A DNA stretch of 20,618 nt from a virus. Its lineage: Duplodnaviria; Heunggongvirae; Uroviricota; Caudoviricetes. The number at the start of each line of letters is the position of its first letter. Within the stretch, counting starts at the first letter, position 1. The stretch lies in the IMG/VR virus record IMGVR_UViG_2531839178_000020; one strand, 5' to 3'. Made by a program: the position numbers. Shown piece by piece: positions 3,001 to 12,000 of the stretch.

Positions 3001-6000
3001 AAAGTCCGCGATGGAGAGCTGATTGCCAGCATGGATACATTCATACGGCTGGCAGAAAGAGCGGGGTATCAGATAACAGCACCTGCTCAGGAGGAAACCA
3101 GTGACATTAACAGCAACTCGAATTCCTGAGTGGGTCCACCAGCAGGCGTTGCTAGTCCTGCGGCGGTACAGATGCCGACGTATATTCCCGCATCGGATAC
3201 AGCGCAACGGATATCTCAGTCTGAAGGTTAACCGTCGCTGGCGGCTGTTATCGAAAGACGACGGCCGGAACTGGGAAGTAATGAGTCATGAACGTTATTC
3301 GGGGGAAATAAAGAAATGATCGACAACCGCACCGCCAGCGCCAGCGCCAGCGCCATTGACCAGGCATTACAGAAACATGATACACCCGTCGGCCCGTTAT
3401 TTTTTGTAACACGCCACGGAAGAACAAAAAAATGCCTCACCCGAAAAACGGCAATTCGTTACCTGGCATTCTTTATGACCACCCGCGCTTTTGAACGTTC
3501 AGGATTCCGACAACGCCATCCTGACAATCGTTTTATCTTCAACGGGAATGAGATATGGAAACGTGGAGAATCAACCACAGAGTATACCCGCGCACACCAG
3601 CGAACAATCAGACGACTGCGCAGACTCATCGCCAGGAAACAGTATACAGAAAAATGGTTCAGAAAATATGACACATGGAGCGCCGGATATTACGAACTGA
3701 TGGCAACAAAACCATTCTGACGTAAACGAAATTAACCATGACGCAATTAAATAAGGCAAGCCGAATACATCAGGAGGACCATGAACATTTATTTCAGAAT
3801 AGTTATATCACTGGCAATTATCGCATGTATTTACGGATTAATCGTTCCGGCCCTCATATCAATGAAGGATACGGTAGCAGTGATTTCTGGCTTTGCTCTG
3901 GCGTGTCTGACCCCGCCCTGCATTTATGCCATTTATAAGGGTCTTTCTTTCCCCGGGAGGGAAAAATGAAAAAACAATTGCGCTTGTTTTCGCGGTCAGT
4001 CTGGCTGTCTTCGGACTTGTAGGTTGCGATCGCGTTGAACCAGGTAATGTGGGTATCAAAGTCAACAAACTGGGCGACGACAAAGGTGTCGGTGAGGTGG
4101 TCGGTGTTGGTCGCTACTGGACTGGCTGGAATACTGAAGTTTACATTTTCCCGACCTTCAAGCAAATGAAGACCTACGATGAACCGTTCAGTTTCCAGAT
4201 GAGTGACGGCACAACCATCGGCTATCACATCGGCGTGGCCTACAAAGTTGATCCATCCAAAGTTACCACAGTCTTTCAGACTTACCGCAAAGGCGTGGAT
4301 GACATTACCGACACTGACCTGCGCCAGAAAATTGCCGACGCACTCAATCGGCTGGCCAGCAAAATGACCACTGACAAATTTATCGACGGCGGCAAGTCTG
4401 AACTACTGGATGCCGCACTTAAAGACATTCAGGAAGAGATGACACCCATCGGCATTCAGGTAATGAGCCTCTCTTATGTAGATAAACCGGAATACCCTCC
4501 AACCGTTATCGACAGCATTAACGCCAAAGTCACGGCAAACCAGAAAACCCTGCGGCGCGAACAGGAAGTCAAGCAACGTGAAGCGGAGGCCAACATGCTA
4601 CGTGCGGAAGCTGCCGGACAGGCTGATGCCATTCGAACAAAAGCCCAGGCAGAAGCCGATGCCATTCGTTTACGCGGCGAAGCTCTACGCCAGAACCCAG
4701 GCGTCATGGAGCTGGAAGCCATCAACAAGTGGAACGGTACACTGCCGCAATACATGACCAGTGGTGCCAATACACCATTTATCCAGATTAAATAACTTAT
4801 ATGCCCGGCAGGCCGCCGGGCTAAGGGAAATGCAGATGAACACCCAGAATACTCAACCGCAAATAATGAACTATGACCCGAATCTGACGTCATGCGGACG
4901 CATGGCAAAACAAACCGTTCGATTAACTTTCGGACTATGGGAATACCGCGAAACATTCGAAGTTACTGTCGGCGGCAATCTGACCGGACTGGATGTTATC
5001 AGTTGCGCTATTGAAAGCCTGTACGCAACGCTGCCTTATGAAGAAGTCGAGGATGAGCGCACAGGGGAAACAGATATCATGGCCACCATTAATATTGGCG
5101 AACTGATATGTCAGGATGAAGACCTGTCCGGAGAGCTCTGGCTTGCCGGGATGCTTATCTCAGCAGAAATTATCAGTATTGAACCCGCTACAAACATACG
5201 GCTCTGAAGTTCTCACTATTCAGAGAGCAGGAGAAAAAATGTTCGCTTTGATTAATCAGGGACAACTGTATACCGACAGTGCCGGTTACCCGGTAAAAAT
5301 TATTCGCTGCATAAACAACACTGTGTTGTACAGAAGAATGGATGGGCGAACACAGTCAGTAAAAATAAACGATTTCAATGAACTGTTTGAACGGATCGAT
5401 CACCAGGAATACCGACAAATTCTGGCAGAAACAGAGCAGGAAGCTCATCTGAAAAAATTACGGGCCATGAAAAGGAAGTAAAGAATGAATAAAGCGTTTG
5501 AGCTATGGGTACGCCAGCGTTACGGCAATCGCTATGACCTGACGCGAGATGTTGACGGTTTCTACTGTCGTGAAATTGTGAAACGAATGTTTGAAGTGTG
5601 GTGCCACTGCCGTGGGCTGAGTGTTGTGTGAGGTAATGCATGGGCAATGTGATTCAACTGGCTCCCAATGAATGGGTTTGTGAAAGCGTTCTTATCGCAA
5701 TTACCGGGCTCAAACCAGGCACAATTCTCCGAGCCCGGAAAGAATGCTGGATGGTAGGAAGAGAGTATATTCACGTATCACCAGACGGTAATCCAAAGCC
5801 ATCCAGCGAATGTATGTATAACAGAAAAGCAATAGATGCCTGGGTCTCTTCAATGAAAAACAAACAACCTGGGTGATTTAATGCCATGAAGTATGTAAGC
5901 TCGTATCGCTCTTGGGCGTCTGGAGGTATCAATGGATAAAGTCAAATATCCAACAGGCGTCGAAAACCACGGTGGCACATTACGCATCTGGTTTAATTTT

Positions 6001-9000: not shown

Positions 9001-12000
9001 AGAGCCAGGGCAGAACCAGATCCGCTAACTCGTGACGAATTTATTCGCCTGATAGATGCTTGCCGGCATCAGCAGACAAAAAACCTGTGGTCATTGGCTG
9101 TGTACACAGGAATGCGTCATGGTGAACTGGTCTCCCTGGCCTGGGAAGATATCGATCTGAAAGCAGGAACAATTACTATCAGGCGCAATTATACGAAACT
9201 CGGTGAGTTCACTCTACCTAAAACTGAAGCAAGTACAAACAGGGTTGTGCATCTTATCCAGCCCGCTATCAGTGTCCTGAAAAATCAGGCTGAAATGACA
9301 AGACTGGGTAAGCAGCACAACATCAAGGTTCAACTACGTGAATATGGACGTTCAGTAAATCATGAATGTACTTTCGTATTTAACCCCCAGGTGGTTAGAA
9401 AAAGCAAACAGGTAGGTTTTATCTACAAGGTAGATTCCATTGGCGACTCATGGGAAACAGCCATTAAACGTGCAGGCATCAGGCATCGAAAGGCATACCA
9501 GTCACGACACACTTATGCGTGCTGGTCATTATCTGCCGGAGCAAATCCAAGCTTCATTGCCAGCCAGATGGGGCATGCAAGTGCCCAGATGGTGTTCAAT
9601 GTATACGGAGCATGGATGACTGACAGCAATGCAGAACAGATCGCAATGCTGAATCAGAAGCTGGCAGATTATGTCCCAATGATGTCCCATGGTCACCAAA
9701 GTGACACAAGAGGCTTATTAAAATCAGTGAGTTAGCTTTTAATACCCGTCATGTTAACTGCGTGGAGGGCAACACCACGCTTTACGCCCTGCCGAAACCC
9801 GAGGTTGTCCTGCGCTGGCGTGAGCAGACCACAGATGACTTCCGCTTCTGTTTTAAGTTTCCAGCGACCATTTCGCATCAGGCAGCATTACGGCATTGCG
9901 ATGATTTAGTGACTGAATTTTTGACCCGCATGTCACCGTTGGCTCCGCGCATTGGGCAATACTGGCTGCAACTGCCTGCCACATTCGGCCCACGGGAGCT
10001 GCCTGCGCTTTGGAATTTTCTCGATTCTCTCCCTGGCGAATTTAATTATGGTGTGGAAGTCCGCCATCCACAGTTTTTCGCCAAAGGGGAAGAGGAACAA
10101 ACGGTTAATCGCGGTTTACATCAGCGCGGCGTTAATCGGGTGATTTTTATTAGACACGTTTAAATACACCACCTAAAGCGATACAATCTAGGCATCAGTT
10201 TTGAGGTGAACAATGAAACGTGCCATTTCTTACATCAGGTTTTCATCTGAGAAGCAATCCCGAGGTGATTCATTACGCCGACAATCTAAGATGGTCACTG
10301 ATTGGCTTAAGGCTCATCCTGAGTACTACCTTGACCAAGATTTCTCTTTTCGTGATTTAGGTGTGAGTGGATTCACTGGTAAGCACTTGAAAGGTGGCTT
10401 AGGTGACTTTTTAACCGCTATCGAGAAAGGGCTTGTTAAAGCTGGTGATACGCTCTTGATAGAATCTCTTGACCGTTTGTCACGCCAGAACGTAGACCGA
10501 GCAAGTGAGCTATTACGAAACATTCTTCGCTCTGGTGTAGATGTAGTCACCTTGTCCGATGGTGAACATTACACACGAGAATCTCTTAAAGACCCGTTAG
10601 CTCTGATTAAAAGCATTCTGATAATGCAGCGGTCGCATGAGGAGAGTTTGCGTAAATCTGAGCGTATACAAGCTGCATGGAACCGTAAAAAAGAACTCAT
10701 CTCTGAAGGTATCAAGATTTCTAAACGTTGTCCTGCATGGTTAAGGCTGAATGATGACCGTAAAAGCTTCTCTGTGATACCTGAGAAAGTGGAGACTGTG
10801 AAGAGGTGCTTTCAGCTACGGTTAGAGGGTAAGTCTATCTGGGAGATTGTCAGAACTCTTAATGCTGAAGGTCACCAGACACTTAACCAATATAAAGCGG
10901 GTAAGTTTGGTCAAACCTCAGTGCAAGACCTTCTGAAGAATCGCTCTGTAATTGGTTACTTCACACCTAAAGGCTGTTGTGAGATAGCTGGTTATTACCC
11001 CTCTATCATCCCTGAGAGTGATTTCTACAAAGTCCAGCAACTATCACATTCTCGTCACGGTCGAAAACCTGTTTCAGATAAACCATTGAGTGTGAATCTC
11101 TTTAAAGGGGTTATCCGTTGTTCTGAATGTGGTCATGCTTTGATTATCACAGGCTTTAGCGATACAAGAAACGGGATTTATCGTTGTCCTCTTCGTAATG
11201 AAAACCGTTGTAGTGCTAAAGGGCTGTCACGTAAGCAAACCGATGGTACATTGCTTACCCTGCTATCTCGTCTTGACCGATTTGATAGCGATACGACGAA
11301 TACCATAGATATGTTGAGGCTACACCGTGAACACATCTCAAGCAATATTGAAAAGCTGGTACAGCTATCACTTGAAATTGAAGATTTGTCAGCTATTACC
11401 ATCAAACTAAAGCAGTTAAAAGGTGAGCTATCACAGGTTGATGCTGATATCGAGAAGGAGACACAGCGGCTTAAGTCTATCGATACAGGCTCTTTGTCCG
11501 ATTGTGACTTGAGTACAAAGGCGGGAAGGATTGAAGCACAACTGATAATCAAAAGTGCTGTTAAAGAGGTCGTTTTAAATACTGCTAAACGTCGCTGTAA
11601 AGTGACTTTTCACAACGGTAGGTCAATTAACCTACCAATAACAGAAAACCCCTCAGAGGACGTTACAGAGGCTATACAGTCGCTTTCTGAAGTCACTGAA
11701 AGGGGTTTAATAGCTGTTGATGTAGTAGAGATTTAGTATCTTTTGTTAGGATTCACACTAAACTTCTTCAAAGTACTACCTGTACCAGCATTATTAAGCA
11801 CCTTTGAAGCTTGCTCATTAGCGGCATCTGAGAAGGTGCTTTTTCCGTTCTTAACTTTGACACTTTTACCACAATTGATACGGGCTTGAAGTTGCTCATT
11901 AGTGAGTTCACTCGTAGAGAGATTATATAGCTCCTGACACATCAACATACCGTTACCTAGACTTGTTGTAGTGTTCCCTGTATTCTTTTTGCTGGTAGCA

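Follow-up and report, generated by a model that had tools for sequence, protein, structure and literature searches.

The integrase gene (int) of a phiP27-type lambdoid prophage lies at the yecE attachment site of Shigella boydii 965-58, where it spans positions 5932-9735 of the 20,618-nucleotide stretch of DNA that was analyzed (the window), and it is knocked out by an IS600 element that carries an IS30 element inside it, probably with loss of the prophage's own means of excision. We assign a probability of about 0.6 to this reading, in which stepwise insertion of the two elements is slightly the likeliest course of events. Strain 965-58 is the source of the DNA, and the database record of the truncated product, EIQ30451.1, is annotated 'integrase domain protein [Shigella boydii 965-58]'. 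The features used below are as follows:

1-396, plus strand: second IS600 copy, with only its 3' end in the window; its target duplication, TAT, is at 397-399
437-2925, plus strand: IS2 with a nested IS630-type element, from Pfam matches; 5-bp TCCCC duplication at 432-436 and 2926-2930
5640-5876, plus strand: xis (excisionase), intact, 78 aa; Pfam DUF1233 'putative excisionase', E = 1.2e-32
5932-6265, plus strand: 5' part of int, codons 1-111 plus 1 nt; 100% identical to the 5' part of VL40 int
6263-6265: left copy of the CAA target duplication
6266-6592, plus strand: IS600 left arm, with the left inverted repeat and orfA codons 1-88 (start at 6330); 99.4-99.7% identical to annotated IS600
6581-6587, plus strand: A7 slippery run for the programmed -1 frameshift between orfA and orfB; the point where IS30 inserted is 4 nt downstream
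6591-6592: left copy of the AC target duplication made by IS30
6593-7813, plus strand: complete IS30, 1,221 bp; intact transposase ORF at 6655-7806, 383 aa
7814-7815: matching AC copy at the right end of IS30
7816-8752, plus strand: IS600 right arm, with the right inverted repeat, the end of orfA, and orfB as an intact ORF of 272 aa (7891-8709)
8753-8755: right copy of the CAA target duplication
8756-9735, plus strand: 3' part of int, with the core-binding and catalytic domains and without a start codon of its own
9754-9764: att core TTAACTGCGTG, the prophage/host junction inside yecE (attR in the present orientation)

Attachment site and gene order both agree with a phiP27-type prophage. Integration is at an 11-bp core in yecE, as expected of a phiP27-type integrase: TTAACTGCGTG is the same 11 bp that is annotated as att in the phiP27 record (AJ298298), and homology to the prophage-free yecE of BW25113 begins at this core (9754-9764). 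The Stx2e-converting phage phiP27 (AJ298298 / NC_003356) has in addition a 437-aa Int with an Arm-DNA-bind_2 and a tyrosine recombinase domain, and the xis-int order that is found in the window, where xis has the position of the phiP27 excisionase L02; the window int differs from that of phiP27 in the 2,487 bp of IS DNA that interrupt it. No stx genes are present within the window, and an Rfam scan of the window gave 0 matches. The prophage in the window is not phiP27 itself: the related prophage of FDAARGOS_944 is lambda-like and carries ipaH (at its far end, as ipaHd, the gene of a T3SS effector).

The state of int was determined by in silico excision as follows: removal of 6266-8752 and of one CAA joins 5932-6265 to 8756-9735 and gives a stop-free frame of 1,314 nt (437 codons), which in the present DNA is interrupted after codon 111. 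The rejoined gene is identical to the intact int of E. coli VL40 (WP_000361995.1) at 1,314 of 1,314 nt, its product has the Arm-DNA-bind_2 and Phage_integrase domains, and 421 of the 437 residues are identical to phiP27 Int (96%; 16 aa differ). The restoration of the reading frame claimed in the preliminary description is thus exact. The arm-binding and tyrosine-recombinase domains are now 2,487 bp apart and occupy a single uninterrupted ORF only after the excision. On recount the CAA copies (6263-6265 and 8753-8755) and the AC copies (6591-6592 and 7814-7815) were all present, and the E. coli genomes VL40 and FDAARGOS_944 both show an empty site with a single CAA; the 3' part is 100% identical to FDAARGOS_944 over 8753-9583. 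As it stands, the 5' part runs into IS600 and reaches a stop at 6273, and int can yield from its own start codon only a 113-aa stub with the arm-binding domain. Judged from its sequence, the break appears clean and young, and the earlier view that the lesion looks recent holds, because the two halves, taken together, match an intact allele at every position. The insertion is common to two assemblies that differ elsewhere, and it is therefore older than their split.

The insert is the sum of an IS600 of 1,264 bp, an IS30 of 1,221 bp and the 2-bp AC duplication (1264 + 1221 + 2 = 2487). In the window the IS600 ends, TGAGG...CCTCA, are at 6266 and 8752, and once IS30 and one AC are taken out, what remains is a 1,264-bp element (ends TGAGGT...ACCTCA) with an orfA of 100 aa (HTH_Tnp_1) and an orfB of 272 aa (rve) that is 99.2-99.7% identical to seven RefSeq-annotated IS600 copies. 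It has the length, the imperfect TG...CA terminal repeats, the 3-bp duplication (here CAA) and the orfA/orfB overlap at an A-run by which IS600 is recognized; the OrfB sequence is unique to its own contig. The RefSeq annotation of intact IS600 copies includes 'programmed frameshift'. In the window, orfA codons 1-88 are fused to IS30 sequence in a 122-aa ORF (6330-6698), and after a -1 shift at the A7 run the frame ends at a stop inside IS30. Since IS30 sits 4 nt downstream of this run, the IS600 copy is unable to make OrfAB. The inner element has the properties of IS30, namely a length of 1,221 bp, inverted repeats of ~26 bp (which agree at 23 of the first 26 terminal bases), a 2-bp duplication and a single transposase of 383 aa that is identical to the K-12 copy (WP_001254932.1), from which the DNA differs at 2 nt. 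The earlier statement that neither the integrase nor the transposase of this IS copy is intact is accordingly correct for int and for IS600 OrfAB, with the qualifier that the IS30 transposase is intact.

The frameshift window of IS3-family elements (ATATTAAAAA(AA)GC...) contains a hot spot at which IS30 recurs, and the IS30 in int lies there. Of 5,426 E. coli genomes, 1,276 have the forward IS600/IS30 junction, K-12 among them, and IS30 in the reverse orientation at the same IS600 dinucleotide was found in 361 genomes and also in plasmids; when species-representative genomes were scanned for the junction, matches were obtained in two E. coli records only. IS30 also abuts the orfA of IS911 and that of another IS3-family element at the equivalent ..ILKK/R codon, and it is this use of both orientations, together with the equivalent position in other elements, that identifies the IS600 site as a hot spot. 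IS30 prefers nearly palindromic hot spots and cuts with a 2-bp stagger (PMC9333248), and the target here is roughly palindromic (7 of 12 symmetric positions). The IS30 copy beside the fec operon of K-12 likewise lies within the frameshift window of an IS3-family orfA, and its left junction is the same IS600/IS30 junction as in the window (99.3% identity). The K-12 copy is a rearranged relic, with an IS600 left arm on one side and an inverted IS911 orfA fragment on the other, whereas in the window the two arms of IS600 and the two AC copies are all in place, and the target duplication in the interrupted gene is intact. The literature that we searched gave no account of IS600::IS30, nor of IS30 targeting IS3-family frameshift windows.

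Many IS600 copies of the 965-58 lineage carry IS30 at this same dinucleotide. The identical internal junction recurs at 12 or more loci of the sister S. boydii assembly PSSP01000001.1 (GCA_002968135.1); both junctions are present at 11 of the 12, several loci have 3-4-bp duplications of their own (TAT, CAA, GGA, TAT, TTT and CTAC), and no plain IS600 was seen in the ~110 kb of the sister genome that were sampled. IS30 activity in the sister genome is indicated by locus L013, where the junction is of the reverse type, and by L010, where IS30 is outside IS600. Does IS30, then, target the frameshift windows of IS3-family elements (IS600, IS911 and others) systematically, with at least a dozen IS600 copies hit in the 965-58 lineage, or is the chimera an amplifying 2.5-kb unit? 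We would put about even odds on one of these two forms being correct, and in either form the int lesion would be a by-product of an IS-versus-IS interaction. IS30 parts the slippery run from orfB, so the host IS would be silenced, a reading in terms of IS-within-IS parasitism.

The nested structure at int was earlier described as the result of direct transposition of IS600 into the gene followed by a later insertion of IS30. The order of the two insertions cannot be read from the locus, because the nested form is multicopy and IS30 has entered its hot spot in either orientation. The stepwise history is nevertheless slightly the likeliest: IS600 would have transposed into int with duplication of CAA, and IS30 would subsequently have hit the hot spot inside that int-borne IS600 with duplication of AC. 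In its favor, the IS30 parts are invariant among nested copies, whereas their IS600 arms vary. A less probable alternative is that IS30 entered IS600 once and that the resulting 2,487-bp non-autonomous unit moved into int in one event with OrfAB supplied in trans by intact IS600 copies, which would reverse the order given earlier. The shared internal junction of the 12 sister loci, several with private duplications, agrees with this, as do the IS30 part, which is the same in all of them, and an IS600::IS30 copy that adjoins sat in B2 E. coli and has a private AAC duplication. Private duplications were nonetheless rejected as proof of unit transposition, since they mark the IS600 insertion alone and are silent on whether IS30 was present at the time; repeated hits of IS30 on resident IS600 copies would leave the same pattern. 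An argument from the uniform orientation of ten sister copies was likewise rejected, because these copies were retrieved with a forward-orientation-specific fusion protein query and their uniformity is a sampling bias. Movement of the unit is further weakened by the proven hot spot, which IS30 has entered in either orientation and which recurs in other elements of the IS3 family. OrfAB of IS3-family elements acts preferentially in cis, as is known from IS911, and a non-autonomous derivative should therefore amplify poorly.

Allelic comparison of the IS600 arms bears on all of the histories. No allele separates IS30-bearing from plain IS600 copies, which speaks against movement of a single unit, but the alleles are reticulate, and this SNP test for diagnostic alleles was set aside as uninformative on history. 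Allele 1198C is shared solely by the two IS30-bearing copies within the prophage of the window, 8 kb apart; two separate IS30 hits would account for this no better than would conversion or a short-range move of the nested unit. The variation of the IS600 arms, moreover, is explicable by gene conversion, which is visibly active, and this too counts against the stepwise history. It is improbable, however, that a plain IS600 in int gained its IS30 from an IS30-bearing copy elsewhere by homologous recombination or gene conversion, the crossovers falling within its arms of 327 and 937 bp. In favor of such an exchange, the IS600 copy in the window and its orthologue at L004 differ at positions 700 and 1015 (numbering of the restored 1,264-bp element), where paralogues carry the alternative base, and several nested copies are without matching duplications, whose loss points to recombination between copies. 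E. coli N32 is the one genome with a plain IS600 at the sat site; it was rejected as an ancestral intermediate because of the foreign right flank there and is itself a recombinant. Moving a 1.2-kb heterology takes two crossovers, however, and the int locus bears no direct trace of them, its CAA duplication and flanks being undisturbed. A plain IS600 at the CAA site of int is present in no strain on record, and IS30 is present on each of the two contigs with the 113-aa stub; this favors movement of the unit over the stepwise history, which on balance we still prefer.

It is a reasonable inference from the sequence that the prophage would be unable to promote its own excision and is in this sense 'locked in', but is the int lesion itself what holds it there? 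There is a lesser chance that it is not, either because a related integrase of the genome complements the defect in trans or because the prophage was already immobile or defective. Homologues of the window int are carried by 328 E. coli genomes, and the same 9 kb holds another IS600 as well as IS2 with an IS630-type element; no fewer than three additional IS copies (four elements) already disrupt this end of the prophage. The IS600 copy at the window edge carries IS30 in the sister assembly (L004a). IS2 and the IS630-type element are a further case, at this end, of one IS nested in another. The IS sites of this prophage end, that of IS2 and the IS630-type element included, are empty in FDAARGOS_944 and so offer no comparison. 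The related prophage there has its own defects: frameshifts in many of the structural genes, an IS600 that splits dnaB, and an independent IS600 insertion that splits int close to the 3' end. Against an int lesion without consequence are the intact xis and att core of the window and the fact that no second phiP27-type int is seen in the available sequence, the remainder of the prophage being outside the window.

Shigella genomes contain IS-riddled, defective lambdoid prophages of the 'ipaH island' type, and the prophage described here resembles these in being a remnant, situated at a chromosomal att site, into which several IS have inserted, one of them in the integrase gene. The splitting of int by a nested IS is therefore ordinary prophage decay in Shigella, one more case in which IS expansion fixes prophages in place, and only the IS30 hot spot in IS600 is mildly new. 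A nested IS with perfect duplications tempts one to a stepwise story, but where the outer IS contains a hot spot for the inner element and the nested form is multicopy, a single locus cannot give the order of events. The preference of IS30 for IS3-family frameshift windows may merit a systematic survey, and immobilization of the prophage could help to retain its cargo, as ipaHd is carried on the same prophage in the relative FDAARGOS_944.

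All junctions at the integrase gene (int) were recomputed from the sequence read over 5700-10000, which gave the following features:

5640-5876: excisionase, DUF1233 (Pfam)
5932-6265: 5′ part of the integrase ORF, start codon at 5932
6263-6265 and 8753-8755: CAA target duplication on both sides of the outer element
6266-8752: outer element with IS3-family ends, left end TGAGGTAGCC... and right end ...GTACACCTCA
6591-6592 and 7814-7815: AC duplication on both sides of IS30
6593-7813: inner element with IS30 ends, 1,221 bp, inside the outer element

The insert length of 2487 (1264 + 1221 + 2) fits 6266-8752 exactly. 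Rejoining 5932-6265 to 8756-9735 yields a stop-free 1,314-nt ORF of 437 codons whose protein has the Pfam domains Arm-DNA-bind_2 and Phage_integrase, and taking out IS30 with one AC restores a 1,264-bp IS600 with an orfA of 100 aa (HTH_Tnp_1) and an orfB of 272 aa (rve); the 383-aa IS30 transposase has HTH_38 and rve. The preliminary description, in which int is cut by an IS600-like element carrying IS30, was thus right to the base in its coordinates, in both duplications, which are present on recount, and in the restoration of the int frame.

Two comparators with an empty site emerged when 5,426 complete E. coli genomes were searched and local alignments made. E. coli VL40 has an uninterrupted 437-codon integrase adjoining yecE, FDAARGOS_944 has the same prophage as the window, and in both the empty site reads ...TATGAATCCATTGCAA joined directly to GGATGATGG..., with one CAA only. 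The VL40 allele (WP_000361995.1) and the rejoined int are identical at 1,314 of 1,314 nt. Because of this match and the single-CAA empty sites, int must have been whole when the insertion occurred and has suffered no decay afterwards, and the earlier view that the knock-out is recent is upheld.

The integrase is closely related to that of phiP27, an Stx2e phage (16 of the 437 residues of the rejoined protein differ), and lies at that phage's known site: the 11-bp att site annotated in the phiP27 record is found unchanged (TTAACTGCGTG) at 9754-9764, exactly where homology to the prophage-free yecE of BW25113 begins. The window therefore contains the int-proximal end of a prophage integrated in yecE at the phiP27 site. 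The window comes from Shigella boydii 965-58, of which it is contig AKNA01000052.1; the int insertion is shared by a second assembly, GCA_002968135.1 (PSSP01000001.1), with 99.84% identity across 10 kb. As annotated in lysogens, yecE begins before int has ended (overlap 9717-9735), so the prophage provides a new 5′ end for yecE (DUF72), whose expression may persist after phiP27-type integration. IS elements crowd this end of the prophage:

1-396: 3′ terminal part of a further IS600 copy that has a TAT duplication; this copy is also IS30-bearing in the sister assembly
437-2925: IS2 with a nested IS630-type element at a TA within its left end; 5-bp duplication TCCCC at 432-436 and 2926-2930

Neither site is occupied in FDAARGOS_944. 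Its related prophage of about 48 kb lies between yecD and yecE, with ipaHd at its far end, several structural genes frameshifted and dnaB split by IS600. A plain IS600 separately interrupts its int towards the 3′ end (approximately window-equivalent position 9583), so the same integrase gene has been struck by IS600-type insertions at least twice, in different lineages. FDAARGOS_944 (NZ_CP065613.1; loci L022 2109-3860 and L002) is 'E. coli' in RefSeq; its ipaHd and 261-kb IS600-rich plasmid make it look like a Shigella or EIEC strain.

yecE is broken again 393 bp downstream of the phiP27 att core, at 10147/10148, by an element that fills the window from 10148 to its end at 20618:

10213-11736, plus strand: large serine recombinase gene, 507 aa, starting the inserted element
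11733-12527, minus strand: Dit-like tail gene
12670-14793, minus strand: tape measure tail gene

Since yecE is intact in the sister assembly, strain 965-58 gained this element on its own. By comparison with K-12, TTAGACA stands on either side of the breakpoint and may form part of the att core. A search of a phage collection found no close relative, only a 0.5-kb patch of 82-84% identity.

Translation from the start codon of int can yield no more than a 113-aa product, comprising the arm-binding domain, which is annotated thus in the 965-58 assembly. The A7 run of IS600 lies at 6581-6587 and IS30 begins 4 nt beyond it; read through, the orfA frame forms a 122-aa fusion with IS30 sequence, and after a -1 shift a stop is met within IS30, so this IS600 copy cannot make OrfAB. 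The earlier claim that neither int nor this copy's transposase is intact therefore stands, while that of IS30 is complete and has the same protein sequence as in K-12. The xis gene and att core are both intact. Int is required for excision, from which we infer that self-promoted excision is lost; the idea that the prophage is 'locked in' is plausible.

The 122-aa OrfA'-IS30 fusion, as a query, can find only IS600 copies with IS30 in the forward orientation (that at int); it found ten further places in the sister genome. With the two int-locus copies, 12 places share the left junction and 11 of these have both junctions; six have matching target duplications of their own (TAT, CAA, GGA, TAT, TTT and CTAC). 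The same junction is present in 1,276 of the 5,426 E. coli genomes, K-12 and B2 strains included, and in plasmids; a B2 copy adjoins sat, with an AAC duplication. In two copies of the sister genome IS30 is itself broken, by an IS4-type element (L008) and by an IS630-type plus another element (L012), giving three nesting levels.

The insertion point in IS600 is a genuine IS30 hot spot. Reverse-orientation IS30 occupies the very same dinucleotide in 361 E. coli genomes and in plasmids, and IS30 adjoins the orfA of IS911 in K-12 and of another IS3-family element in strain M217, in both at the equivalent ..ILKK/R codon beside ATATTAAAAA(AA)GC. The IS600 target is roughly palindromic (7 of 12 positions symmetric), in keeping with published evidence that IS30 favours nearly palindromic hot spots and cuts them with a 2-bp stagger (PMC9333248). 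The sister genome also has IS30 outside IS600 (L010) and a single IS30 between inverted IS600 left arms, with one forward-type and one reverse-type junction (L013 3937-5811), which points to a rearrangement mediated by IS30 or to recombination between two IS30-bearing IS600 copies lying in opposite orientations. Facing left arms of IS600 and IS911 flank IS30 next to fecE in K-12 (L016 3824-5633), as do those of IS600 and the other IS3-family element in M217 (L023 2824-4622). Each arm stops at its own frameshift window, and both loci look like deletions or fusions between two IS30 copies, each in an IS3-family hot spot.

How int acquired both elements is a separate matter: the knock-out itself is secure, but the multicopy junction and the hot spot do not fix the order first proposed, IS600 and then IS30. 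IS3-family transposases prefer to act in cis, and because of this and the proven hot spot we give entry of IS600 into int with IS30 following afterwards a probability of about 0.45; the three histories weighed here leave part of the probability unassigned. The IS30 parts are invariant among copies and the IS600 arms vary at about 20 sites. Taken alone, this would speak for IS30 having recently entered IS600 copies that were already old, but the gene conversion among copies described below weakens the argument. Movement of the whole 2,487-bp IS600::IS30 into int at once we hold to be rather unlikely. The nested structure is multicopy, several copies have their own duplications, and a plain-IS600 intermediate at int is not on record: only two assemblies record the 113-aa stub, which would not differ were IS30 absent, and both have IS30. 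However, the flanking duplications mark insertion of IS600 alone and are silent on whether IS30 was then present, the ten copies came from a forward-only query, and IS30 can reach the same point through its hot spot; we therefore dropped the duplications as proof of such movement. A plain IS600 does occur at the B2 sat site in one genome, N32, but we rejected it as an ancestral intermediate since its foreign right flank marks a recombinant.

Acquisition of IS30 by the int copy of IS600 through conversion from another copy appears improbable. Gene conversion among copies is evident, because the window copy and its orthologue in the sister assembly (L004) differ where paralogues have the other base, but moving IS30 takes two crossovers. 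No allele among the IS600 copies compared separates IS30-bearing from plain ones. 1198C (restored IS600 numbering) is common only to the two copies within this prophage, which is consistent with conversion as well as with a short-range move of the unit.

IS insertions in prophage genes, integrases included, are commonplace in Shigella, and IS600 and IS30 are textbook elements. Our literature search found no description of repeated IS30 use of IS3-family frameshift windows, or of the IS600 copies, a dozen or more in this S. boydii lineage, that carry IS30. The only possibly new points, of modest interest, are thus the recurrence of IS30 in the frameshift windows of IS3-family elements and the multiplicity of IS30-bearing IS600.
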